The notes beneath the pieces were generated by a model. It was not told the DNA's origin, did not search any database, and worked only from the letters and a program-made list of their open reading frames with translations. The translations under genes and the position numbers were made by a program. From the NCBI GenBank assembly GCA_003251635.1, contig QKEW01000012.1, positions 53,333-117,332 on the forward strand: a DNA stretch of 64,000 bases, read 5' to 3'. The stretch comes from a bacterium (GTDB taxonomy: Bacteria > Patescibacteriota > Minisyncoccia > Moranbacterales > GWC2-37-73). Below, piece by piece: positions 2,623-58,360 of the stretch (within the stretch, counting starts at the first letter, position 1; each line of letters opens with the position of its first letter).

Positions 2623-4638
2623 ATGCAAAAAGAAAAAGGCTTCATTATCGATGTTATCCCCCTAGCCCGCCTGCCCCTCGGTCGGCAGCAGTTTTTTTCC
2701 TATCTTTCTGAGAAGGAAATCCCGACCGGCTCATTGGTCAGTGTGCCACTTTTTCGTCGTTCAATCTCGGGCATCGTCCTGCAAAGTCGCCAAGATTTTG
2801 AAAGGCTGGGTAATTTTCGACTCAAAAAAGTTTTGGCCGTCGAGCGTGAAAATTTCCTAACTTCAAACCAACTTCAACTGGCCGAGTTCATTTCGGACTA
2901 TTATTTTTCGTCTTTAGGAGTCACTCTTCGTCACTTCATGCCTAAGATTGTGCAGGAGCGTTCCAAAAAATCTCTAGCTGATTCTGCTCAAACATCCAAC
3001 AACAAAAAAGTAACTCTGACAGCAGCTCAAGATAAAATTGTCCAAAAAATTCTGACCAGTAAAAATCCAAGAAAGTTTTTACTGCAAGGTCCGGCCGCCG
3101 CTGGCAAAACCGAGATTTTCCTGGAAGCTATTTGGCGAATCCAAAAGCAAAATTCTCAAGCTCAATTTTTGATTCTATTGCCAGAACTTAATCTGGCCGC
3201 CCAAGCTCTGGAAAGATATGGCCAACGATTTAATCTAGATGAAATTGTGATTTTGAACAGTCAAATCTCCAAGGGACACTTTTTTACCAATTGGGAAAAA
3301 ATTCGCACCGGAGAGGCTAAGATAATTTTGGGCACTCGAGCTGCCTTATTTGCTCCGTTTAAAAACCTAGCTTTAGTGATTCTTGATGAGGAGCAGGACA
3401 TTTCTTTCAAACAATGGGACTTGAGTCCTCGTTATGACGGCCGAACCGTAGCCCAAAAATTGGCCGACATTTTTAAAGCTAAATTAATTTTAGCCAGTGC
3501 CACTCCCCGCATCGAAGATTATTGGCAAACCCAAGAAGACAAGTTGCAATTACTAAAGCTTCCCTCTTTTAGTCAGCTGAATCCCCAAGTAGAGATTATT
3601 GATATGCGAAAAGAAAAATGGACCGACTTTAAGGGCAAGAAAAAGCCCAATTTTTCTTTTTTAAGTTTGAGACTGCAGCAAGAAATTACTTGGGCTTTAA
3701 AAAATAAACTGCAAACAATCTTGTTTATCAATCGCCAAGGCATGAGTCGTTTTTCAGTTTGCGCCCAGTGTAAAGCGGTCCTCCGTTGTCCCAAGTGTGA
3801 GCGAGCCTTGATTTATGACAAGGCTGGACATTATCGCTGTCTGCATTGTTCCTATCAAAGCGACCTTTTTGCTACCTGCCCCAGTTGCCAATCCAATGAG
3901 TTTAAAAATGTCGGGCTAGGCACTCACCGGGTTGAAAAAGAAGTAGCCAAATTTTTCCCCCAGGCTCAGATTGAAATTTTGGACTCCTCCGTTACTAAAA
4001 AAAGTGGCGCATTGGAAAAAATATATCAAAATTTTGCTAACAAAAAAATTGACATTCTGATTGGAACCCAGATGCTGACCAAGAACTGGGATTTTCCCAA
4101 TGTCGGCCTGGTTTCAATTATTGATACTGATTCCCTTTTTGATTTCCCGGATTTTCTGACTGACGAACAAGCTTTTGCTCACATCGTTCAATTGATCGGG
4201 CGAACAGGACGCCCTGGCGCTAAATTTGCCGGTCGCGCTCTCATTCAAACCTATGTTCCAGACAAAGACACCTTGAAACTTGCCGCGGAAAAAAACTGGG
4301 AAAAATTCTACCAAAAAACTCTCAATCAAAGACAGGATTTGAATTACCCGCCTTTTTCCAAAATGGTAAAGCTGGTTTGTCAGCACACGGAAATTGAAAA
4401 AGTCAAGAAAGAAAGCCGCAAAATTTTTGAACAACTTTCGGCTGCTAGTGAGATTTCTGCACCAGTAAAAATTATCGGCCCAATCGAACCGCTAATTGCC
4501 AATGTTCGCGGTCGCCATCGACAACAAATCATTTTGAAATTTCCAGTCAACCAGGAAATTCCACTTCAAATCGAAAGTGTTTTACAGAAACTTTCCTCCG
4601 ACTGGATCATTGATGTCGACCCGATTGGAATTGTTTAA
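2623..4638 (+). CDS. priA: primosomal protein N' (PriA helicase)
   Basis: Walker A LLQGPAAAGKTEIF, DEEQ box (VILDEEQD), and a Cys-rich zinc-binding region CAQCKAVLRCPKCERALIYDKAGHYRCLHCSYQSDLFATCPSCQS that is characteristic of PriA. Confidence 0.9.
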   Translation: MQKEKGFIIDVIPLARLPLGRQQFFSYLSEKEIPTGSLVSVPLFRRSISGIVLQSRQDFERLGNFRLKKVLAVERENFLTSNQLQLAEFISDYYFSSLGVTLRHFMPKIVQERSKKSLADSAQTSNNKKVTLTAAQDKIVQKILTSKNPRKFLLQGPAAAGKTEIFLEAIWRIQKQNSQAQFLILLPELNLAAQALERYGQRFNLDEIVILNSQISKGHFFTNWEKIRTGEAKIILGTRAALFAPFKNLALVILDEEQDISFKQWDLSPRYDGRTVAQKLADIFKAKLILASATPRIEDYWQTQEDKLQLLKLPSFSQLNPQVEIIDMRKEKWTDFKGKKKPNFSFLSLRLQQEITWALKNKLQTILFINRQGMSRFSVCAQCKAVLRCPKCERALIYDKAGHYRCLHCSYQSDLFATCPSCQSNEFKNVGLGTHRVEKEVAKFFPQAQIEILDSSVTKKSGALEKIYQNFANKKIDILIGTQMLTKNWDFPNVGLVSIIDTDSLFDFPDFLTDEQAFAHIVQLIGRTGRPGAKFAGRALIQTYVPDKDTLKLAAEKNWEKFYQKTLNQRQDLNYPPFSKMVKLVCQHTEIEKVKKESRKIFEQLSAASEISAPVKIIGPIEPLIANVRGRHRQQIILKFPVNQEIPLQIESVLQKLSSDWIIDVDPIGIV

Positions 4639-32238: not shown

Positions 32239-33951
32239 TTATTCCTTTCTTAGATCCACTAGGACTAGCTGGATTTTTTGATTACCGTTCCAATTATCTT
32301 TTTGCAAATTAAAGGCCGCATCTATTATATCGCCTTTTTGCAAATGTGAAAATTCCCCCGCCTTATAGAAAAAGATGGCCTCCAAAATCTTTGGGTCATC
32401 GGAATTTCCACTCAAAAAAAGTTTGAGGTGGTTTTCCTTACTACCCATTTTTCGAACTTCCATTATTTCCATTTGGCGACTTGCCAAAATTGGCTCAGGA
32501 TTTCCTTCCCCAAATGGACGAAGCTGTTCAATTTCAGCCGCCAATTCAAAATTTAGATCACCCGAGCTAACCTCAACATCGATTCCTAACTCCGGATCAG
32601 TTTCCTGGCCATCTAAAATCTTTTCGATTTCCGAATCCATTTTTTGATAAAACTTTTCCAAATTTTCATTTTTTATTGAAATTCCAGCTGCCTGAGCGTG
32701 ACCGCCAAATTTCAAAAGCAATTCGCTGCATTTTTCAATAACTTCAATGATATTGACTGCTGGGATCGAACGAAAGGACCCAACACTTTCAGTTTCTCCT
32801 TTTTGCAAAACAGCTGCCGGCTTATTGAATTTATCGCTAATTTTGCCAGCCACCAGACCAACGATTCCAATGGGAAAATCTTCTTGGCAGGCAAAAATAA
32901 ATTTCTTGGAAGCAAATTTATCCGCTGCCATAGCTTTAACTTTCTCCGTCACTGCTTCTGTCATTTTCTGGCGATTAGCATTATTCTCCTCTAGCTCCAA
33001 AGCCAGTACTCGCGCCGCTGCAATATCCTTTTCAACCAACAAATTATAGGCTAGATTGGCGTGATTGATCCGACCAGCCGCATTGATACGCGGAGCAATT
33101 TTGAATCCCACATCGCGACTTGTTGGCAGATTGTTTTCATCAATATTAAGCCGAGCCACCGCAAAAATCTGTTGCAAGCCAATCCGCTTGGTCTTAGATA
33201 AAACCAAAAGGCCAAACTTGGCAAAAAGACGGTTTTCATCCAACAAAGGAACGCAATCTGCAATAGTTCCGATCGCCACCAAATCTAAAAACCACTTAGT
33301 CTGATCCAACTCCTCTGGCAACAACTTTTCAAACAAAGCTTGCGCCAACTTGAAAGCCACTCCAACCCCAGCCAAATCGCTAAAAGGATAACCACAGTCC
33401 TTTACCTTTGGATTGATAATCGCCAAAGCCGTTGGCAGTTTTTCCGGTACATGATGATGATCAGTTATGATCACATCCAAACCTAGTTGCCGTGCCAACT
33501 CAACTTCCTTTACTCCTGTAATTCCACAATCAACCGTGATGATCAATTTTATTTCCTTTTGAGCTAATTCTTGAATAGCTTTTGAGTTCATTCCATAGCC
33601 TTCACTTTTTTTATCCGGAATATACACCAAAACCTCCAGGCCGACTTTTTCCAGGGTTTCTTTCAAAATAACTGAAGCCGTGATTCCATCGGCGTCATAG
33701 TCTCCAAAAACCGCCACCTTTTCGTGCTTCTCTAGAGCTTGGGTAATTCGTCCCACCGCTTTTTGCATGTCCTGAAAAAGCCAAGGACTGTGAGAGTTTT
33801 TTTGATAATCCAATTTGAGAAAATTTTCAATTTCTCCCAAATTTTTCAAACCACGCTTACTCAAAATTTTCAACAAGACCTCAGACCATTTTTTTTGGCT
33901 GATTCCAATATTATCAAAAGAAATTTTATCTGAATTAATTTTCCACTTCAT
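32239..33951 (-). CDS. recJ: single-stranded-DNA-specific exonuclease RecJ
   Basis: DHH motifs VAVFGDYDADGITASVIL and IITDHHH, plus DHHA1 and a C-terminal OB-like region. 570 aa. Confidence 0.88.
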   Translation of the reverse strand: MKWKINSDKISFDNIGISQKKWSEVLLKILSKRGLKNLGEIENFLKLDYQKNSHSPWLFQDMQKAVGRITQALEKHEKVAVFGDYDADGITASVILKETLEKVGLEVLVYIPDKKSEGYGMNSKAIQELAQKEIKLIITVDCGITGVKEVELARQLGLDVIITDHHHVPEKLPTALAIINPKVKDCGYPFSDLAGVGVAFKLAQALFEKLLPEELDQTKWFLDLVAIGTIADCVPLLDENRLFAKFGLLVLSKTKRIGLQQIFAVARLNIDENNLPTSRDVGFKIAPRINAAGRINHANLAYNLLVEKDIAAARVLALELEENNANRQKMTEAVTEKVKAMAADKFASKKFIFACQEDFPIGIVGLVAGKISDKFNKPAAVLQKGETESVGSFRSIPAVNIIEVIEKCSELLLKFGGHAQAAGISIKNENLEKFYQKMDSEIEKILDGQETDPELGIDVEVSSGDLNFELAAEIEQLRPFGEGNPEPILASRQMEIMEVRKMGSKENHLKLFLSGNSDDPKILEAIFFYKAGEFSHLQKGDIIDAAFNLQKDNWNGNQKIQLVLVDLRKE

Positions 33952-33991
33952 TTAGCCATCATTTTCAACAATTATCGCCCAAAGCCCGACA

Positions 33992-36064
33992 CTAAAAAAT
34001 AATTTTCACATCAACTGCCACCGCGGCTTGTCCATCATTATAGACAAATAAGGGATTAATATCCAGCTCTGCAATTTGCGGCAAATCCTGGGCCATATTC
34101 ATCAAGCCTTGAATTATCAGAGCAAGCTCTTTGACATCAAACTCTTTTTGCCCACGAGTTTGCCGGAATAAGAAACTGGTTTTTCCTTTTTTGAGTTTTT
34201 CTTCAATTTCAACCAAATTCAGCGGGGCTACAAAAAAATCTACCATCTTGAAAACTTCCGTATAAATCCCACCCAAACCAGCCACCACTATCGGACCAAA
34301 AATTGGATCACGGTTAATTCCCAAAATCAATTCCATACCCCTTGAAAGCATTGACTGGACCAATACTTTCTCGCCATTAAATCTGGTTTGAAAATCAGCC
34401 AGGGCCGCTTTCAATTCATCTGCATTTTTTATATTTAAAACCAAAGCTTTCTGATCGGTTTTGTGCAAGACTTGGTCGCTGTCAATCTTAGCCACCACCG
34501 GATATTCAATCTCTTGGGGAATTTGATCTGTTCCACTCAAATGAAAAGACTGGACCGTCTTAATCCCATAAAGCTCCATGACCTTAGCGGCTTCCAAAAA
34601 ATCCAAAGCTTTGCGTCCGCTTTTTTGAGCTTTTTCCAAAATTTCCCCAGCCATTTTCTGGTTTTCAGTTTGACTTTCCGCTAGCGACTCTCCATTTTCA
34701 ATTGTCAGATTTTTTCGTTGCTGCCAAACATAGAATCTGTTTAAAATTTCCACAGCTTTTTCCGGAAAATCAAAAACTAAAATTCCATTTTTTTGCATTT
34801 TAGCTCGAGCCTCTTCAACCAACTGGCCACCGACAAAAGCCGCTGCCACGTTTTTGCTTGACCGTTTTTTAAAATCAATCAACAAATCCGCAACGGCCCC
34901 TACCGGGGTTTTTTCTTGTGGAGTCAAAATCGCGATGATAGCTCCCAGCTCCTCTTTTTCCAAATTCTCCAAAGCCCAAGCGTAACGCTTCTCATCAGCA
35001 TCCCCCAAGATATCAATCGGGTTATTGACCGAGCCTTCGGCTGGCAATTCTTTTTGAAGTTGAAACTTGAACTCATCAGAAAAATCTGCCAACTGAATCG
35101 TTTTACCCTTGAAAGCATCGGTAGCCAAAACTCCACCTCCACCAGCATTGGTAATTACCGCTACTTTCTCATTAGAAAACTCCCTGGCCGCTGAAAATAT
35201 CTTCAACGTTTGCAAGAAATCTTCCAAAGTCTCGGTTCGCACCACTCCGACTTTTTCAAAAACTGCCTCTACAATCTCATCACTGCCAGCCAACGCACCA
35301 GTATGTGAAGAAATGGCCTGTTGAGCCTTGGCAGTTTTGCCAGCTTTCAAAATCACAATCGGTTTTTGACGCGCCACTCTTTCAGCCGTTTCAATAAATT
35401 GCGCTCCATTTTTTATTCCCTCCAAATACATGCCGATAACTTTGGTTTTTTGGTCTTTTTCCAGTTGCTCCAAGATTTCAGTTTCACTTAGCTGCATTTT
35501 ATTGCCCAAAGAAACCAACAAGGAAAAACTTAAATTTTCTTTTTTGGCCACATCCAAGATAGCCACCAGCAAAGCTCCGGATTGCGAACCAAGAGCAATC
35601 GAACCATCTTCCGGCATCCCAACCGCGAAAGAAGCGTTCAATTTCAAACTGGGATTGAGAAATCCCAAACAGTTTGGCCCCAAAATGTTCAAACCTTTCT
35701 CGCGAGCCAAATCAGCCAATTCTTTTTCCAATTGAGCCCCCTCTTTGCCAGTTTCAGCAAAACCGGCTGAGATTATCACAAAATTCTTGACTTTGGCGGA
35801 ATTTTTAACCACATCCAAGACAAATTTGGCCGGCACTACCACCACAGCCAAATCAACCTGACTTTCGATTTCATCCAGATTCTGATAACATTTTTGCTTA
35901 AAAAGCTCAGTATAGGAAGGATTAACTAAAAAAATCTCTCCGGCAAAGCCAAGTTTCAAAACATTTTCTGCAATGGCTGTGCCAATTTTGCCTGGCTTTT
36001 CACTGGCTCCTACCACTGCTACCGACTTGGGCTCAAAAAAAGAAGAAAAGTTTGCTTTTTCCAT
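33992..36064 (-). CDS. acyl-CoA (acetyl-CoA) synthetase, ADP/NDP-forming, fused alpha-beta (ACD family)
   Basis: N-terminal CoA-binding KSVAVVGASEKPGKIGTAIAENV, succinyl-CoA-synthetase-like flavodoxin and ATP-grasp regions. 690 aa. Confidence 0.8.
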   Translation of the reverse strand: MEKANFSSFFEPKSVAVVGASEKPGKIGTAIAENVLKLGFAGEIFLVNPSYTELFKQKCYQNLDEIESQVDLAVVVVPAKFVLDVVKNSAKVKNFVIISAGFAETGKEGAQLEKELADLAREKGLNILGPNCLGFLNPSLKLNASFAVGMPEDGSIALGSQSGALLVAILDVAKKENLSFSLLVSLGNKMQLSETEILEQLEKDQKTKVIGMYLEGIKNGAQFIETAERVARQKPIVILKAGKTAKAQQAISSHTGALAGSDEIVEAVFEKVGVVRTETLEDFLQTLKIFSAAREFSNEKVAVITNAGGGGVLATDAFKGKTIQLADFSDEFKFQLQKELPAEGSVNNPIDILGDADEKRYAWALENLEKEELGAIIAILTPQEKTPVGAVADLLIDFKKRSSKNVAAAFVGGQLVEEARAKMQKNGILVFDFPEKAVEILNRFYVWQQRKNLTIENGESLAESQTENQKMAGEILEKAQKSGRKALDFLEAAKVMELYGIKTVQSFHLSGTDQIPQEIEYPVVAKIDSDQVLHKTDQKALVLNIKNADELKAALADFQTRFNGEKVLVQSMLSRGMELILGINRDPIFGPIVVAGLGGIYTEVFKMVDFFVAPLNLVEIEEKLKKGKTSFLFRQTRGQKEFDVKELALIIQGLMNMAQDLPQIAELDINPLFVYNDGQAAVAVDVKIIF

Positions 36065-36173
36065 AGATTCTTAGTGTAATTTATCCATTTATCTTTCAAT
36101 TATACACCAATTCCCAAGCGACCGAAACACCCATGACAAAATTTAATACGTATTATAATCCTTACCAAATTTT

Positions 36174-36884
36174 TTATTTCAGATCCAAATAATGTTTTCT
36201 CTTTTTCTCCTCAAATTTTTCAATAGCATAGCGCAGCATTGTACGGGACATTTTCAGGGCATGCTGATCCAAAAAATCACATTCAACTTTTTCGCTGCAG
36301 CGCTTGCCAACTTCGCGCAGCATCCAACCAACCGCCTTGTGAATCAAATCCTGCTCATCGCCCAAAAGCTTTTTGGCAATCTTCAAGGTCCATTCGCATT
36401 CACCGTTTTTAGTGAAATGAAAGGTGGCCAAAATGGCAATTCGTCTTTCCCATAAAATTTTCGACTCGGCCAGTTCCAGCAAAATTTTTCGATCTCGATT
36501 TTTCAAATAGGCTCCCGCAATTTTGTCAGCCGTCAAATCAACCAAATCCCAATTGTTGATAAATTTGGTATTTTGCCAATAAATTTCAAAAATATCTTTT
36601 TGGGTTTTCTCGTCACCTCTTTCAAATTGATCCACCAAAACCAGCAAGGCCCAGAGACGCTCTTCGTGAAAAGCGGAGTGCAGCAAAGTCAAAATATCTT
36701 CGCGAGAAGCCTCTCGATATTTTTTGACCAAACGACGAATTTCCGGCACCACGATTCCCAAAAACTGATCGCCTTCACCATACTGCCCCTGACCAGTCTT
36801 GAAAAACCGCCGCAAAATTTGGGCTTTTTCAATACTAGCCACTTGTCTCAAATCTTTTTTAATTTTGGAAATTTCACTTTTCAT
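36174..36884 (-). CDS. DNA alkylation repair protein (AlkC/AlkD-like HEAT-repeat glycosylase family)
   Basis: 236 aa all-alpha protein. The N-terminus LRQVASIEKAQILRRFFKTGQGQYGEGDQFLGIVVPEIRRLVKKY matches the AlkD family hallmark. Confidence 0.7.
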   Translation of the reverse strand: MKSEISKIKKDLRQVASIEKAQILRRFFKTGQGQYGEGDQFLGIVVPEIRRLVKKYREASREDILTLLHSAFHEERLWALLVLVDQFERGDEKTQKDIFEIYWQNTKFINNWDLVDLTADKIAGAYLKNRDRKILLELAESKILWERRIAILATFHFTKNGECEWTLKIAKKLLGDEQDLIHKAVGWMLREVGKRCSEKVECDFLDQHALKMSRTMLRYAIEKFEEKKRKHYLDLK

Positions 36885-36973: not shown

Positions 36974-37003
36974 AAAAATAAAAAACGGCCGACAATCGAC
37001 CGC
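36974..37003 (-). terminator. rho-independent terminator downstream of dnaJ
   Basis: On the minus strand, GCGGTCGATTGTCGGCCG hairpin followed by TTTTTTATTTTTT. Confidence 0.55.
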
Positions 37004-37013
37004 TTTTAGTCTT

Positions 37014-38099
37014 TTAATCTAACTCTCGAAGTTGCTCGACCAGTTTTTTCTGCTGGCGAGAAAGTTTTCTGGGAACGTCCACCACGATTTTAACCAGATG
37101 GTCACCTCGCGAAGATCCCTGCAAAACTGGCACGCCTTTGCCTTTGATTCGGAAAGTTTCACCTGACTGAGTTCCCGACGGCACTTTCATGGTAACTTGA
37201 CCTTCGATTGTTTTGATTGGAATTTTGTCACCCAAAACTGCTTGAGCAAAAGAAACGTGTTGGGAAGAAAGGATATCATTGTTTTTTCGCTGAAATTCCC
37301 GATGCGGTCGCACATGCACATTCACATAGAGATTGCCATTGGGAGCACCTTTCTCTCCGGCCTCTCCGGCACCGCGAATTGAAATTGTTTGACCCGAATC
37401 GATTCCGGCTGGAATTTTGATATTTATTTTTTTCTCCTGTTTAATGCGACCGTCTCCTCCGCACTTGTGACATTTTTTGGAATAGGTCTTGCCTGATCCC
37501 TGACAGGTTGGACAAGTTGAAACCTGCGCAAATGATCCAAACATACTGCGCACCGTTTGTTGAACTTTGCCAGACCCCTTGCAGGTCAAACAGGTTTCTT
37601 CTTTGGCACCCGGTTCTCCTCCTGTTCCATGACAAACATCACATTCGGTTTTCAAATACAAATTTATATCCCGATCTGCACCATTGACCATTTCTTCAAA
37701 AGAAATCTCCACATCCACCTGCACATCGTTGCCTGGTTGTTTTTGACTGCGCGAGCGACCACCCCCAAAAATATCAGAGAAAATATCTCCAAAACCTTCG
37801 CCGAAATCTCCGGAAAAACCACCTTGAAAACCGGAAAAATCAAATCCGCCTTGAGAAGAAAAACCGCCAAAGCCACCCTGTCCGCCACTGCCAAAAGTTT
37901 GACCAAACTGATCATATTGAGCTCGTTTGGTTTTGTCAGAAAGAGTCTGATAGGCTTCGTTAATTTCTTTGAATTTTTTTTCATCCCCGCCAGCTTTGTC
38001 GGGATGATATTTGTGGGCCAGTTTTCGATAAGCTTTTTTGATCTCATCATCTGAAGCTCCCTTGGAAATGCCTAAAGTATCGTAAAAATCTTTTGCCAT
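37014..38099 (-). CDS. dnaJ: chaperone DnaJ (Hsp40)
   Basis: J-domain with [12 protein letters not shown], a Gly/Phe-rich linker, and four CxxCxGxG zinc-finger repeats. Confidence 0.92.
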
Positions 38100-38164
38100 A
38101 ATCTTTCAGAAAAATTAATTGCTATTTTTTCCTTGCCCAACCATTCTACAACCAAAATCAAAAC

Positions 38165-38191
38165 TTAGCAATCCCCTCGGACGAGTGCTAA
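38165..38191. promoter_or_regulatory. CIRCE-like HrcA operator (one mismatch) upstream of dnaJ
   Basis: TTAGCAaTC-N9-GAGTGCTAA, versus the consensus TTAGCACTC-N9-GAGTGCTAA. Confidence 0.6.
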
Positions 38192-38206
38192 TTAATAACT
38201 TTTTAT

Positions 38207-39181
38207 TTAAACGATTATTTCCGCCAAACGATCTTCCAATTTTACCCGCACAATGGCTGTTTTTTTCAAAATCCAAAAAACCATTGAAGCCAGATATAGC
38301 CAAAAAAAACGCAAAAATGGACCGAGCGAAAGCAGAGTCAAAAGCAAAATTAAGGCCAAGACAAATGAAAGCAGCTGGGGAGAATTTTCTTGTCCCCTCA
38401 CAACCGAAAATTTGCTCATCCTGGAATTTATTAAGGCCACAAAAACATCGTTTACCTTCTCGTCTCCCGCAATTTTGAAACCAGCCGTCTGAGAAAGTTG
38501 TTTCTTCCAATCATCAACAACGATCTGTCGCAATTCGCTCTCACTGACCGAAGCGCTGCTTGAAAGAATATCATTCATCTTATTGTCAGATTGCTTGGCG
38601 GAAATGACCTCATAGAGTTCGGCCAAAAAATCGTCCATGGAAATCTGATCACTCTTCATTTTGGAAAAATCGGGAGAGACCTTGGATAAACTCCAATCAA
38701 TAATTCCATTTGTAAGTTTATTAGAATCAAGTGACAAGTTTATTTCAGGTAAATTTCTGACCGTAAAATAATATTGACTGGTTACAATCAAAGAAAGAGC
38801 GACAATTATGTAAAAAATGCTTCGCTGAGAATTGCGGCGAAAACTTATTTTCAAACTGGAATCAAAATCTCCACAAGCAATTACCCAGCCCTTGAAAAGA
38901 AGCAGGACTCCAACCAAAACAAACAACAAATGGCCGGCCTTAAAAACAAAAATTAGACTCAAGGCCGTCACTCCAAAACAAACGGCCAGAATCATCAATC
39001 TTTGGCGCTCCAGAGCAAAAAACAAAACCAGACAAACAGCCAAAATGGAAAATATCAAAAAGGGCCACCAAAAATTACTAGCCGATTCTACCATTATTGC
39101 CCGATCGATTGACCACCAAGACAATAAAGCGCTTACCAAAATCACAACCATCAGGATTTTATTCAAATTCTTTTTTAACAT
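38207..39181 (-). CDS. hypothetical membrane protein (4 N-terminal + 2 C-terminal TM helices around a soluble domain)
   Basis: 324 aa with no recognisable family. It lies between dnaK and dnaJ on the same strand. Confidence 0.4.
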   Translation of the reverse strand: MLKKNLNKILMVVILVSALLSWWSIDRAIMVESASNFWWPFLIFSILAVCLVLFFALERQRLMILAVCFGVTALSLIFVFKAGHLLFVLVGVLLLFKGWVIACGDFDSSLKISFRRNSQRSIFYIIVALSLIVTSQYYFTVRNLPEINLSLDSNKLTNGIIDWSLSKVSPDFSKMKSDQISMDDFLAELYEVISAKQSDNKMNDILSSSASVSESELRQIVVDDWKKQLSQTAGFKIAGDEKVNDVFVALINSRMSKFSVVRGQENSPQLLSFVLALILLLTLLSLGPFLRFFWLYLASMVFWILKKTAIVRVKLEDRLAEIIV

Positions 39182-39300
39182 TATTTTTGTTTTAGTTTTT
39201 TGTTATTCATATGTTTTCATTTTAACATAAAACCTGAAAAATTTCCTTGGAAATTGAAAAAGGCGAAGTCCGTTTGGACTTCGCCTTTTCGCGAAACAAT

Positions 39301-40176
39301 TCAATCGCCCGAGTCTTCACCACCCAAAACCAGTGGCTCAGACTCATCTTCATCAAAATCATATTCTTCCAAATCTTCTTCCTCGGGAAATAAAGCGAGA
39401 AACTGCTGAATTTCCACAGGGATTTCCGGGATGATAAACATCGGGAGGTAAGAGCAATAAGCCAACATTCCATCTATTGATTTTTTCACGGCCAAGGCTT
39501 GGTGATGAGTTCTGTTCGGATTATATATCTTATAAAGCTCAAAAACTTTTTCACATCCCAAGAAAAAAGCCAATAAACTTAATGTCTCATCATTAATGCT
39601 GAGTTTTTTAACCGGGTCAACACTTTCCGCACCATAAGGATCCTCGTCCAGAGGCACAACCCAGAGATAGCCGTTAGTGATTTTTTTATTCTTACAAGCT
39701 CGATAAATATCGCGCTTGTATTCGCTAACTGCATTGAATAATAAAGTTTGATATCCGGCCAAAATGTCCATATTGGCCGGATTAAAAACCCAAATATTTT
39801 CCAAATGGGTTCGCAAACCATTTTTGAGAAAATCCAAAAAGTCAGCTAGATAAAACTCCACTCTTCCGACATTTTCAGCGTTAACATCATCGCCGAAGTA
39901 AAAAGTTATATCGTTATAATCAGTATCAACAATCATCAGCTGCGCTAAATCGTCATCTAATGAAAAATTAAAATTAAGCTTGGAATTCCATTTATTACTA
40001 TTGCAAATTGCCACGCTCATGCCCGTCAATAGCCAACCCGGGATTTTTAAGTGTTTAATAACAACCAATGCTCTGTTACTTTCCCTGGCGTTAAAAATTT
40101 TTTTCAAGCCTTGATATCCAAGACACCACTTACCACCACCTGTTACCAAAGTCAAAAATAAGTTTTTCATCTTCAA
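39301..40176 (-). CDS. hypothetical protein with poly-acidic C-terminal tail
   Basis: 291 aa with no recognisable family. The C-terminus is EEEDLEEYDFDEDESEPLVLGGEDSGD. Same strand as dnaK, immediately downstream of it. Confidence 0.4.
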   Translation of the reverse strand: MKMKNLFLTLVTGGGKWCLGYQGLKKIFNARESNRALVVIKHLKIPGWLLTGMSVAICNSNKWNSKLNFNFSLDDDLAQLMIVDTDYNDITFYFGDDVNAENVGRVEFYLADFLDFLKNGLRTHLENIWVFNPANMDILAGYQTLLFNAVSEYKRDIYRACKNKKITNGYLWVVPLDEDPYGAESVDPVKKLSINDETLSLLAFFLGCEKVFELYKIYNPNRTHHQALAVKKSIDGMLAYCSYLPMFIIPEIPVEIQQFLALFPEEEDLEEYDFDEDESEPLVLGGEDSGD

Positions 40177-40351
40177 ATACCCTTTCTCCAGAAATTTTAG
40201 CCCCTCGCCTAAAAACCTAATTGTTAAGCTACTTTTTTTAAACTTCCCAAAACTTTAGCACAAAGTCTGAGAAAAATCAAGCTTGGGACACCAAAAAACG
40301 AGGGATTGCTCCCTCGTTTCTGGTCAGAAAATATTCAACTAAAAGTTCAAC

Positions 40352-42271
40352 TTATTTTTTCTCCTGATCGTCTTTTTTATCCTCTTCAACCTCGGCGTCT
40401 TTCGGTTTTTCTTCGCTGCCTTCGGTTTTCTTTTCTCCTTCAGCCCCAGCCGCCGGGCCTTGAGCTTCTTCACTGGCTTTATAGAGCTTTTCGCCAATCT
40501 TTTGCGCGACTGCACTCAAGCCTTCAGTCTTAGCCTTGATTTCTTCCAAGCTGTCGCCGTTTTTGACCTTGTTCAATTCTTCAATAGCTTCTTCAACCGG
40601 CTTTTTCTCTTCGGCGGTAATTTTATCCCCAGCATCCTTCAAAGCTTTTTCAGTGGTATAAACCAAAGTGTCCGCCATATTGCGCGCCTCGATCAATTCT
40701 TTCTTGCGCTTATCCTCTTCGGCATGCATTTCAGCTTCTTTGGTCATTCTTTCAATTTCCTCTTTGCTCACTCCAGAGGAAGCTTCAATCTTGATTGACT
40801 GTTCCTTGCCAGTCGCCTTATCTTTAGCAGTTACGTGCAAGATTCCGTTGGCATCAATATCAAAAGTCACTTCCACTTGCGGCACTCCGCGCGGAGCCGG
40901 TGGAATTCCATCCAACATAAACCTTCCCAAGGTTTTATTGTCAGTCGCCATCTCGCGTTCACCTTGAAGCACGTGAATTTCCACACTCGGTTGATTGTCA
41001 GCGGCGGTTGAGAAAATTTGCGATTTAGCGGTTGGCACAGTCGTGTTGCGGTCAATCAAAGGTGTACGAACCCCGCCCATAGTTTCGATTCCCAAAGTCA
41101 ATGGAGTCACATCCAAAAGCAACACATCCTTAACCGAACCTTCCAAAACTCCGCCTTGAATGGCTGCGCCCAAAGCCACGACTTCATCCGGATTAACTGT
41201 GATGTTTGGTTTTTTGCCAAAGAATTTTTCAACTGTTTGCAAAACCAAAGGCATTCTGGTCATTCCTCCCACCATCACTACTTCGTTGATTTTCTTAGCA
41301 TCCAATTTAGCATCCGCCAAAGCCTTCTTAACCGGTTCCAAAGTTTTTTCTACCAATTCACTCACCAATTCTTCCAATTTAGAGCGAGTCATTTTCATCA
41401 CTAAATGTTTCGGACCGCTGGCATCGGAAGTAATGAAGGGTTGGTTGATTTCCGTTTCCATGGAAGTTGAAAGTTCAATCTTAGCCTTTTCAGCTGCTTC
41501 TTTAATTCGTTGCAGCGCCAAAGGATCTTTGGATAAATCAATTCCCTCCTGTTTTTTGAATTCCTCCAAAATCCAACTGATGATTTTTTGATCAAAGTCG
41601 TCTCCACCCAAGTGCGTATCGCCATTGGTTGACTTCACTTCCACCGTATCATCGCCAACTTCCAAAATGGAAATATCAAAAGTTCCTCCTCCCAAATCAT
41701 AGACGGCAATTTTCTCATCTTTCTTCTTGTCAAAACCATAAGCCAAGGCGGCTGCTGTCGGCTCATTGATGATGCGACGCACTTTGAGTCCAGCAATTTC
41801 CCCAGCTTCTTTGGTAGCCTTTCGCTGTGAGTCATCAAAATAAGCTGGCACGGTGATCACGGCTTCTTCAATTTTTTCCCCCAATTTCTCTTCGGCATCC
41901 GCTTTAAGTTTTTGCAAAACCATGGCGGAAATTTCTCGTGGAGTATAGTCTTTGTCTCCCATGGTTACTTTCACTCCGCTTTCTGCTTTGACAATTTTGT
42001 AGGGTAAAATATCCAAATCCCTCTGTACTTCCGGATCCTCGAAACTTCTTCCAATCAAGCGCTTGATTGAATAAAGGGTGTTACCTGGATTGGTCACAGC
42101 TTGACGCTTGGCCAAAAGACCCACCAAACGCTCGTTGGTTTTGGAAATTGCCACCATTGAAGGTGTGGTACGATTTCCTTCTTTATTTTCGATAATTTCC
42201 GGTTTACCACCTGAGATCACCGCCATAGCACTGTTGGTTGTGCCCAAATCGATTCCTAAAATTTTTGCCAT
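40352..42271 (-). CDS. dnaK: chaperone DnaK (Hsp70)
   Basis: [18 protein letters not shown]..., DLGGGTFD, and the full Hsp70 architecture. The start was chosen at the [13 protein letters not shown] (42271), not the upstream ATG of the ORF track. Confidence 0.95.
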
Positions 42272-42447
42272 ATTATTTGCGAGAATTTTCATTTCATTTT
42301 GCCACAAAATGACATTCTCAAAATTAATTGTTTTTTATCTAAAAATTTATTATACTTAGATTAGTTATTTAGCTCTATCCGCTCTCTCAGCGCACGAACT
42401 GCCCGTGTGCTTTTCCGCCCCGTTGCCCACAAGGTGACGGGGAATTT

Positions 42448-43020
42448 TTATCCCACTATCACTTTTACCGGACGGATCACTTTCTCTCCAATCCGATACC
42501 CCTTTTGAATAATTTTTTTAATTTTATTTTCTAACTTATGAGCCTTATCCTCGTCATCATTTTTCTTGTCACTGCTTTCTTCCAAAGCTTCATGTAAATT
42601 CGGATCGAATTCATCTCCAATCCTAGCCTCAATTTCATTCACTCCGTTTTGCACCAAAACATCTTCCAATTGTTTTTGAATATACATAATTCCTTGCACC
42701 CAACCTCCACCCTGCTGATCCTCGGGCACATGCGCAGTCGCCGCATGAAAATTATCAATAACCGGAATAATTTGCAAAATCACGTTTTGAGCCGCATAGC
42801 GAATCAAGTCTTTTTGATTATCACTCTGGATTTTTTTGTAATTTTCAAAATCCGCCTGACATCTTTTCCAACCCTCCAAATATTCCTTGCTCTTCTTTTC
42901 CAATTCAGAAATCTCCTGACCCTGTTCAACCACAATTTCCTCTTCCACGTCTTTGAGATCTTTTGCCTCCTCTTTGGAATCTGTTTTTTTAAAAGGTTTC
43001 TTTTTCATATTTATTATCAA
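42448..43020 (-). CDS. grpE: nucleotide exchange factor GrpE
   Basis: RCQADFENYKK motif (RxxADFENYRKR-type) and a long N-terminal acidic coiled coil. Confidence 0.85.
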   Translation of the reverse strand: MIINMKKKPFKKTDSKEEAKDLKDVEEEIVVEQGQEISELEKKSKEYLEGWKRCQADFENYKKIQSDNQKDLIRYAAQNVILQIIPVIDNFHAATAHVPEDQQGGGWVQGIMYIQKQLEDVLVQNGVNEIEARIGDEFDPNLHEALEESSDKKNDDEDKAHKLENKIKKIIQKGYRIGEKVIRPVKVIVG

Positions 43021-43028
43021 TTTAGTAC

Positions 43029-43769
43029 TTAAATAATATTTACAAAAATTATCATTACCATCGCTCCACCCAACATTTTGCGGACATATTCGATGATTGA
43101 TTTATTTTTGGCGTATTTCATCCTTTTCGGACCAATCAAAGCCAAAATCCCTTTTTCTCCATCTTTAGTTTGATAGGGCGAAACAATCATGGAACAATTG
43201 GAAATTTCTCCAATCGGATTTTCCTGACCAATATAAATTTTGGTTTCATTTTCTCCCAACTCTCCGATCAATTTATCAAATTTTTCATCAATATAATCCA
43301 GAGCTTCCACCAAACGACAAACTTCATCAATTTCTCGAAACTCCGGTTGCTCCATCAATTCCTTCATACCAAAATCAAAAAATTCATCTCGGCCTGAACC
43401 GCTAATGGCCAAATTACCGGATAGATGCGAAATCAATTTAGCCATGGTTCGAGTCAAGCGGGTGTTTTGAGCTTTGAGTTTCAGAAATTCTTTTTGCAGT
43501 TTTTGTTGTTCAACTCGCGACAGTTCTTTGTCGCCCATAATCTCCTCGACAAAATAACGATAACCCTTATCAGTTGGAATGCGTCCAGCGCTGATGTGTG
43601 GCTGGTAAAGAAAACCTTCTTCTTCCAACTCAGACATATCGGCTCGGATAGTGGCACTGCTAACGCCAAAATCATAATTCTCGACCAAAAAAGCTGAACC
43701 AACCGGTACTGCATTTTTGGTGTATTCCTCAATCACCGCCGCTAAAATTTTTTCTTGTCGAGTATTCAT
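43029..43769 (-). CDS. hrcA: heat-inducible transcription repressor HrcA (short form, 246 aa)
   Basis: N-terminal winged helix ILAAVIEEYTKNAVPVGSAFLVENYDFGVSSATIRADMSELEEEGFLYQPHISAGRIPTDKGYRYFV. A perfect CIRCE sits immediately upstream. Confidence 0.8.
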   Translation of the reverse strand: MNTRQEKILAAVIEEYTKNAVPVGSAFLVENYDFGVSSATIRADMSELEEEGFLYQPHISAGRIPTDKGYRYFVEEIMGDKELSRVEQQKLQKEFLKLKAQNTRLTRTMAKLISHLSGNLAISGSGRDEFFDFGMKELMEQPEFREIDEVCRLVEALDYIDEKFDKLIGELGENETKIYIGQENPIGEISNCSMIVSPYQTKDGEKGILALIGPKRMKYAKNKSIIEYVRKMLGGAMVMIIFVNII

Positions 43770-43801: not shown

Positions 43802-43828
43802 TTAGCACTCGTCAAGTGCGAGTGCTAA
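43802..43828. promoter_or_regulatory. CIRCE operator (perfect) upstream of hrcA-grpE-dnaK
   Basis: TTAGCACTC-GTCAAGTGC-GAGTGCTAA, 33 nt upstream of the hrcA start codon. Confidence 0.88.
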
Positions 43829-58020: not shown

Positions 58021-58360
58021 CCATCAAGGCAAGCTATAAGCCGGATTCTGTCAGGGACAATCATTTATCTGGACCTATTGTTGCCAATAAGTTCGAGCGA
58101 CACAGACCGACGACTGGCGCCGGAATACGGTCTTGCATTCAGGCAAGGATTTAGCCGTTTCACCCCCTTGTTACCAAGGGACTTTCCCGCTTAAAAAGCG
58201 GGCTATTGATCTTGCGATCAAACACGTCTCTGCTCGCACCTCTAAGATTACTCTCGACGGGAGTTACCCGCTGCCCGCACCGATTTTTCAACCGATTGAA
58301 TGTCCGGACTTTCCTCTCTTGGTCCGAAAACCAAAGGTGATTGCCGACTTACCTTGATGG
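58021..58360 (-). ncRNA. rnpB: RNase P RNA (bacterial-type, about 340 nt)
   Basis: The minus strand contains GAGGAAAGUCCGGAC (P4 5' strand / CR-I) and ACAGAAUCCGGCUUAUAG (P4 3' strand / CR-IV), plus GGGGGUGAAACGGC. A P1 helix is formed by 5' CCAUCAAGGUAAG and 3' CUUGCCUUGAUGG. Region otherwise devoid of credible ORFs. Confidence 0.8.

Follow-up and report, generated by a model that had tools for sequence, protein, structure and literature searches.

The heat-shock genes hrcA, grpE, dnaK and dnaJ of the Moranbacterales contig QKEW01000012.1 lie together in the 64-kb stretch of DNA analysed here (the window, to which all coordinates refer), with two further open reading frames (ORFs), ORF291 and ORF324, between dnaK and dnaJ. 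We consider it likely that this region is a Moranbacteria-type split heat-shock locus composed of separate transcription units. Judged from the signals around them, neither ORF291 nor ORF324 is predicted to be under HrcA control in this genome. A preliminary description of this DNA had considered that the two might be a single insertion, and this does not hold: comparison with related loci indicates that ORF324 represents a lineage-specific conserved family, ancestral at this position and not inserted there, while ORF291, an orphan, occupies a variable slot and is most likely accessory cargo specific to the strain.

All six genes are read from the minus strand, in the order hrcA-grpE-dnaK-ORF291-ORF324-dnaJ (from the list of ORFs, with the chaperone-system genes recognised by Pfam), which agrees with the earlier account that dnaK and dnaJ are separated by two unknown genes of the same orientation. 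A single operon would have neither a terminator nor an internal promoter between dnaK and dnaJ, and in this interval we recognised two candidate terminators, each a hairpin followed by a run of uridines (U-run), and three promoter-like sites. The hairpin after dnaK has perfect arms of 10 nucleotides (nt) and that after ORF291 perfect arms of 14 nt, which places a terminator hairpin on each side of ORF291. A scan for the inverted repeat controlling chaperone expression (CIRCE), allowing up to three mismatches, found exactly two sites in the 64 kb (0.02 expected from shuffles) and none upstream of ORF291 or ORF324. The site before hrcA is perfect (TTAGCACTC-N9-GAGTGCTAA, the consensus as quoted in PMC545781), and the site before dnaJ matches this consensus at 17 of 18 arm positions (0.02 expected by chance), which bears out the earlier account of one perfect and one near-consensus CIRCE. 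Both overlap the -35 box of a promoter, TTGACG-17-TATAAT for hrcA and TTGCTA-17-TAGAAT for dnaJ, and the gene for the HrcA repressor is present in the same genome. The features of the locus are as follows.

43802-43828, minus strand: perfect CIRCE 5' of hrcA, overlapping the -35 box of TTGACG-17-TATAAT (43815-43787)
43029-43769, minus strand: hrcA, 246 amino acids (Pfam HrcA, 6e-24)
42448-43020, minus strand: grpE (Pfam GrpE, 1e-37)
40352-42307, minus strand: dnaK (Pfam HSP70, 3e-261)
40290-40325, minus strand: hairpin resembling an intrinsic terminator, 3' of dnaK (arms 40296-40305 and 40310-40319, U-run; -24.7 kcal/mol)
40252-40280, minus strand: putative promoter-like site of ORF291 (TTGATT, 17-nt spacer, TAAAGT, TG at the extended -10 position)
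39301-40170, minus strand: ORF291, orphan coding gene with an acidic C-terminal tail, 289 amino acids from ATG
39255-39292, minus strand: hairpin resembling an intrinsic terminator, 3' of ORF291 (arms 39258-39271 and 39276-39289, U-run; -27.9 kcal/mol)
39219-39227, minus strand: putative extended -10 element of ORF324, TGtTAAAAT, with a weak -35, read from the sequence
38207-39181, minus strand: ORF324, polytopic membrane protein of an unannotated family of Moranbacteria and the candidate phyla radiation (CPR), from tblastn, hidden Markov models (HMMs) and AlphaFold
38165-38191, minus strand: CIRCE variant of dnaJ, TTAGCACTC-N9-GATTGCTAA, from the CIRCE search; its G-to-T deviation forms the -35 hexamer TTGCTA (38171-38166)
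38143-38148, minus strand: -10 hexamer of dnaJ, TAGAAT, 17 nt from TTGCTA
37014-38099, minus strand: dnaJ (Pfam: J domain, zinc-finger domain and C-terminal domain)
36981-37007, minus strand: terminator 3' of dnaJ (-18.9 kcal/mol)

These signals are consistent with four units. The first, hrcA-grpE-dnaK, would be repressed by HrcA at the perfect CIRCE lying over its -35 box and would end at the hairpin terminator. ORF291 would form a monocistronic unit between two terminators, served by a sigma-70-like promoter of its own, and ORF324 would be transcribed from its own extended -10 promoter. In the fourth unit, dnaJ would be autonomous and HrcA-repressed, with HrcA on the operator blocking RNA polymerase until heat releases it. 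Should transcripts of ORF324 extend into dnaJ, this operator would gate them.

Three observations concern the first unit. The listed TTG start of dnaK (42307) is probably over-extended, the conserved Hsp70 start lying 12 codons later, at about 42271. The spacer between grpE and dnaK contains a GC-rich hairpin (42418-42442) that has no U-run on the sense strand, together with a TATAAT-like hexamer; they might serve in processing or stabilisation, or else as an internal promoter of dnaK. The HrcA encoded here has 246 amino acids, and its Pfam match spans the C-terminal domain only (residues 80-221); the HrcA of model bacteria has about 340 amino acids.

The dnaJ operator across related loci

We retrieved 80 loci from genome assemblies by means of DnaJ (best match 75% identical), mostly labelled Candidatus Moranbacteria/Moraniibacteriota or Parcubacteria/Patescibacteria; individual loci are given by number (L001 and so on). 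A CIRCE precedes dnaJ in 68 of these 80 dnaJ-ascertained loci and lies within 320 nt 5' of it in 81 of the 93 loci overall. The right arm GATTGCTAA, with the same one-base deviation as in the window, recurs in 72 of the 81 CIRCE-bearing loci, and in 73 of the 81 a -10 hexamer (TAnnnT) lies 16-18 nt, nearly always 17, from TTGCTA. The one base at which the arm departs from the CIRCE consensus thus gives rise to the -35 box of a compact operator/promoter element. The variant also precedes dnaJ where both unknown genes are missing, as well as in the closest relative (L001). Since it is shared so widely, it was not re-evolved in this genome, and the comparison indicates that the dnaJ operator is an old, clade-wide feature and not a local repair.

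The element is closely packed against the gene upstream. In the window, the CIRCE begins 15 nt past the stop codon of ORF324 and ends 66 nt upstream of the dnaJ start, and there is no hairpin between the ORF324 stop codon and dnaJ besides the CIRCE itself. Among relatives, the CIRCE lies at a median distance of 19.5 nt from the stop codon of the ORF324-family gene, and 44 of 48 loci have a T-run after it. Some 60 nt may therefore serve at once as HrcA operator, dnaJ promoter and terminator or attenuator of the upstream gene, in that the CIRCE hairpin and T-run probably also end or attenuate ORF324 transcripts.

At least 10 of the 12 dnaJ-ascertained loci without a dnaJ CIRCE have dnaK no more than about 2 kb upstream of dnaJ, with or without a family gene between them. 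The CIRCE-less dnaJ is thus mostly found near dnaK, which means that the presence of the operator tracks the autonomy of dnaJ. As regards the strength of repression, groESL is derepressed more than 2-fold in Lactococcus lactis when one base of a CIRCE arm is changed (PMC4585701), and by analogy the conserved mismatch may also make the repression of dnaJ leakier. Whether the one-mismatch operator sets the heat-shock set-point of dnaJ apart from that of hrcA-grpE-dnaK is one of two leads that this locus offers.

Two further observations were made on these loci. A subclade (L069, L071 and L072) has a perfect CIRCE after a TTGACA -35 box, with the -10 hexamer GATAAT within the CIRCE spacer. Furthermore, many metagenome-assembled genomes labelled "uncultured Bdellovibrionales" or "Micavibrio" (L004, L007, L020, L022, L025 and others; L028, L060) carry Moranbacteria-type dnaJ loci, with DnaJ 53-63% identical to that of the window and, in most of them, the same CIRCE variant. 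These labels are probably wrong.

The ORF324 family next to dnaJ

Homologues of ORF324 were found by tblastn and iterated HMMs in 46 of the 80 dnaJ-ascertained loci (17-39% identity, HMM E values down to 1e-131), and every one of them lies upstream of dnaJ on the same strand. A word-indexed protein search returned only ORF324 itself, which was a failure of sensitivity, since tblastn and HMMs found the family. Given that a sample chosen through dnaJ is biased towards dnaJ, loci were also gathered through the family. All six metagenome loci found by a scan with a 13-sequence alignment continue with a CIRCE and dnaJ; the family proteins P0004 and P0008 are followed by dnaJ wherever the downstream gene is complete, and no contig encoding protein P0001 is on record. 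The preliminary description had named, as something that would count against it, homologues never linked to chaperone genes; those of ORF324 are almost always next to dnaJ, and ORF291 has no homologues to which this could be applied.

The upstream side is much more variable. The neighbour is dnaK directly in L030, L073 and L074; elsewhere, it is dnaK plus 1-12 unrelated variable genes, and in a large clade lepA-trx-yjbQ-yceG stands upstream, with a gap of 11-16 nt between yceG and the family gene. In one locus (L002, 7229-8224), the family gene is split into ORFs of 246 and 75 amino acids, as a frameshift, a pseudogene or an assembly error.

The earlier statement that neither protein shows a recognisable motif was borne out in Pfam, NCBIfam, PADLOC, PHROGs and the PDB sequences. 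For ORF324, the best matches in the first four lie far under the cut-offs and no relatives occur among PDB sequences; for its family, Pfam and NCBIfam hold no match, and no model was matched by more than 2 of 44 members. An AlphaFold model made with 13 sequences is all-helical (predicted local distance difference test (pLDDT) score 65.6, predicted template modelling score 0.56), and Foldseek comparison with PDB and BFVD gave no meaningful match (TM-scores of 0.26 or less). In ORF324, five hydrophobic helices at the N-terminus and a 35-residue hydrophobic hairpin at the C-terminus make up about seven transmembrane (TM) helices, instead of the six given previously. Lysine plus arginine counts over 44 family members, together with the AlphaFold helices, suggest a topology in which the N-terminus is inside and five TM helices are followed by an acidic helical domain of about 130-140 residues outside and a tight two-TM hairpin. 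A membrane-anchored, J-domain co-chaperone of the DjlA type was considered as a candidate identity and rejected for want of a DnaJ-domain match: neither ORF324 nor any of the 44 family members has a J domain at E values up to 1.

ORF324 and dnaJ form an old gene pair, and the pair probably originated inside an hrcA-grpE-dnaK-X-dnaJ operon, X being the family gene. In a DnaJ tree, the CIRCE-less loci mostly form an outgroup cluster, and the arrangement of CIRCE and dnaJ fills the crown group; in the outgroup-like loci L073, L074 and L043, the family gene lies between dnaK and dnaJ, with no CIRCE. The simplest history would start from this operon, continue with the gain of the operator and promoter by dnaJ, and end in repeated breakage and insertion at the junction of dnaK and X. 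In a few crown-group loci (L053, with the dnaK end at 4342 and the dnaJ start at 4390; also L016 and L024), dnaK is near dnaJ and dnaJ has no CIRCE, which suggests secondary re-fusion or loss of the operator. On the other side of dnaJ, synteny is partly conserved: recJ lies a few kb 3' of dnaJ in the window (region 32239-36884), in the closest relative and in the yceG clade (L087), and the genes between dnaJ and recJ are variable, here encoding an AlkD-like protein and an ADP-forming acetyl-CoA synthetase.

We think that the pair persists mainly through compaction and inherited synteny, because about 60 nt accommodate stop codon, operator, promoter and terminator, so that there is hardly a place where a break would be neutral, and that a dedicated chaperone function is less likely. 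If the family were instead a functional partner of DnaJ (a membrane anchor, recruiter or dedicated client through which the DnaK/DnaJ system comes to the membrane), with selection keeping the two adjacent, this would account for an adjacency that is kept in dnaJ-ascertained and family-ascertained loci alike while both outer neighbours change, and also for the family gene between dnaK and dnaJ in the outgroup-like loci, only 39 nt from dnaJ in L074. Nevertheless, we regard this partnership as unlikely. The family has no J domain or other chaperone-related domain, its large conserved domain is predicted to be extracytoplasmic, whereas DnaJ is cytoplasmic, and the large clade mentioned above couples the gene to yceG, a cell-wall gene, and not to a chaperone gene. 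In addition, in most loci, the window included, the CIRCE is 3' of the family gene, so no co-regulation with dnaJ is expected, and about one third of the loci retain CIRCE and dnaJ with other genes at this position. The stronger version, in which the family is embedded in the membrane as a CPR-specific part of the DnaK/DnaJ system, perhaps as its docking site or as a client dedicated to it, seems to us quite unlikely. If true, the family would connect the chaperones of the cytoplasm with quality control of the envelope or of membrane proteins in these reduced cells, having been born inside the hrcA-grpE-dnaK-X-dnaJ operon and kept beside dnaJ since. Whether it has any role in membrane proteostasis is the second lead.

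Several points weigh against separate units and a pair held together by compaction. The promoter and terminator calls are based on sequence: the scanning tool listed neither the ORF291 promoter, which scores 8/12 against a cut-off of 9/12, nor the hairpins after dnaK and ORF291, although we suspect that it missed the latter because stem extension absorbed the U-run. Compaction is something that we infer, and a conserved neighbourhood usually signals functional linkage. In L074, neither operator nor hairpin separates the family gene from dnaJ, so the gene must be co-transcribed with dnaJ there and may be heat-inducible, which makes a proteostasis role of the family possible. The third of the loci from which the family is absent at the position upstream of dnaJ, with CIRCE and dnaJ kept behind other genes, also belongs here. 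The topology rests solely on the positive-inside rule, which the C-terminal tail fits poorly, and the DnaJ tree is a midpoint-rooted neighbour-joining tree, so that the order of events hangs on an uncertain root. Finally, ORF291 and ORF324 could come partly under HrcA control if transcription ran on past the terminator of dnaK.

This last point leads to the suggestion, made in the preliminary description, that both genes are co-transcribed members of the heat-shock regulon and candidate proteostasis factors. The six genes do share a strand and form one cluster, intrinsic terminators are rarely 100% efficient, and some relatives have the family gene of ORF324 within the operon. However, the strong hairpin and U-run terminators after dnaK and ORF291, the promoter-like sites that both genes have of their own and the position of the dnaJ CIRCE 3' of the ORF324 stop codon all speak for separate transcription. 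Furthermore, neither gene has a CIRCE before it here, and the same is true of the family gene throughout the 80 dnaJ-ascertained loci; ORF291, without homologues, cannot be a conserved proteostasis component. We therefore judge it very unlikely that both genes are co-transcribed members of the HrcA regulon acting in proteostasis, and separate units remain our preferred reading.

ORF291 and the slot downstream of dnaK

ORF291 is an orphan. Among 5.8 billion proteins, a word-indexed search retrieved nothing but ORF291, and no homologue was found in an exhaustive phmmer search of 1.84 billion representative proteins, in the ORFs and six-frame translations of 92 related loci at E values up to 10, or in IMG/VR or phage records. 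Its best matches in Pfam, NCBIfam, PADLOC and PHROGs were far below the cut-offs, and PDB sequences gave no match. Relatives contain neither gene fragments of the ORF291 cassette nor DNA similarity to it.

The coding potential of ORF291 is nonetheless that of a gene. By chance, the window should contain only about 0.003 ORFs of 289 codons; the in-frame codon score is 0.248, compared with 0.328 +/- 0.064 for the window's genes (minimum 0.192), and the scores of the other five frames are negative. The GC content (0.379) and GC content at third codon positions (0.383) are close to those of the window's genes (0.391 and 0.387), and a possible ribosome-binding site, GGAGAAAGGG, lies 9 nt 5' of the ATG. 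These features indicate that ORF291 is a real, host-like coding gene. A chance ORF or decaying remnant without function would agree with the lack of any homologue in the searches and with a single-sequence AlphaFold model of mean pLDDT 35, too poor for a fold search. We hold this to be highly improbable for an ORF of such length, with a codon score inside the range of genes in one frame only, a promoter-like site, a possible ribosome-binding site and a strong terminator of its own.

The length of 291 amino acids given in the preliminary description applies to the longest ORF (39301-40176), and the database protein begins at the ATG at 40170 and has 289. The acidic C-terminal tail that it had noted is there, with 15 aspartate or glutamate residues among the last 29. 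SSB-type acidic tails end in a hydrophobic tip (of the D-D-D-I-P-F type). The tail of ORF291 ends in ...GGEDSGD and lacks terminal hydrophobic residues, so the proposed mimicry of an SSB-like interaction tail was rejected. A CIRCE at the ORF291 promoter was likewise considered: a half-site GTGCTAA is present, but the left arm matches at just 3 of 9 positions by eye. ORF291 is probably neither a chaperone partner nor HrcA-controlled.

The interval downstream of dnaK is hypervariable in relatives, where it holds 0-12 genes, and looks like a recurrent integration hot spot in Moranbacteria. Mobile and defence genes gather there along with miscellaneous others: Abi_alpha in L027, an IS200-like Y1 transposase in L024, an rve integrase in L020, a MerR-family protein in L011 and a MauJ-like protein in L010, as well as 23S-IVP-like and DUF3467 proteins. 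A recurrent gene of about 250 amino acids after dnaK was considered as a diverged counterpart of ORF291 and rejected, the genes in question being unrelated to each other and to ORF291. No mobile-element borders (target-site duplications, direct or inverted repeats, or tRNAs) were found at ORF291. ARAGORN found no tRNA gene across the whole 64 kb, and the sole Rfam match in the window is a bacterial class A RNase P RNA (58021-58356, minus strand, 122 bits).

Finally, it is barely credible that both genes were recently inserted, depriving dnaJ of the hrcA promoter and making a new CIRCE necessary: dnaJ does have its own operator, two genes do part it from dnaK, and at least 10 of the 12 CIRCE-less loci do have dnaK close by, yet the same operator variant and promoter geometry recur in 72-73 of the 81 loci, including the closest relative, the variant is found also in loci without ORF324 or a nearby dnaK, which means that the operator long predates this genome, and ORF324 is ancestral at its position. 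What survives of the forced re-evolution of the dnaJ operator, as the preliminary description had it, is a deep-time version, compatible with the data, in which the family gene lay between dnaK and dnaJ first and the CIRCE-bearing dnaJ promoter arose later in the crown group.

Comparison with known systems

Taken as a whole, the locus is an ordinary variant of a known heat-shock locus, and neither of the two leads, on the operator set-point and on membrane proteostasis, overturns the current understanding of HrcA and CIRCE. It can now be sorted into an orphan accessory gene, a lineage-wide membrane-protein family with a stable position before dnaJ, and a compact operator/promoter that is probably a terminator too. 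The remaining interest lies in the stable pairing of the ORF324 family with dnaJ and in the multifunctional operator.

The canonical HrcA/CIRCE operon hrcA-grpE-dnaK-dnaJ is of the Bacillus subtilis type and is also found in Geobacter and Streptococcus thermophilus (PMC545781, PMC3192767). The present locus shares with it the four genes, their order and their common strand, as well as a perfect CIRCE at the hrcA promoter. In contrast to the canonical operon, there is a terminator after dnaK, two unrelated genes precede dnaJ, and dnaJ has an operator and promoter of its own; moreover, over 10 kb separate dnaJ from dnaK in the majority of related genomes. Another parallel lies in stand-alone dnaJ genes preceded by a CIRCE, such as the one that van Asseldonk and colleagues reportedly described in L. 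lactis in 1993. As in that reported case, dnaJ appears to be transcriptionally separate from hrcA-grpE-dnaK, with a CIRCE in its promoter region. The differences are that the operator here carries a conserved mismatch that creates the -35 box and that it lies about 20 nt past the stop codon of a conserved membrane-protein gene.

Hypothetical membrane proteins are typical of the families enriched in CPR bacteria and Parcubacteria (Meheust et al. 2019, PMC6744442). ORF324 is like these in being lineage-restricted, unannotated and multi-TM, a likeness of class that does not map it to any one of them, and it is distinguished by its near-constant place just 5' of dnaJ. The interval downstream of dnaK, in turn, resembles integration hot spots and defence islands in its variability and in cargo such as Abi_alpha, the IS200-like transposase and the rve integrase, and it is this interval that holds ORF291. 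Unlike the usual occupants of such islands, ORF291 has no match to defence or phage families and no flanking repeats, and its base composition is that of the host.

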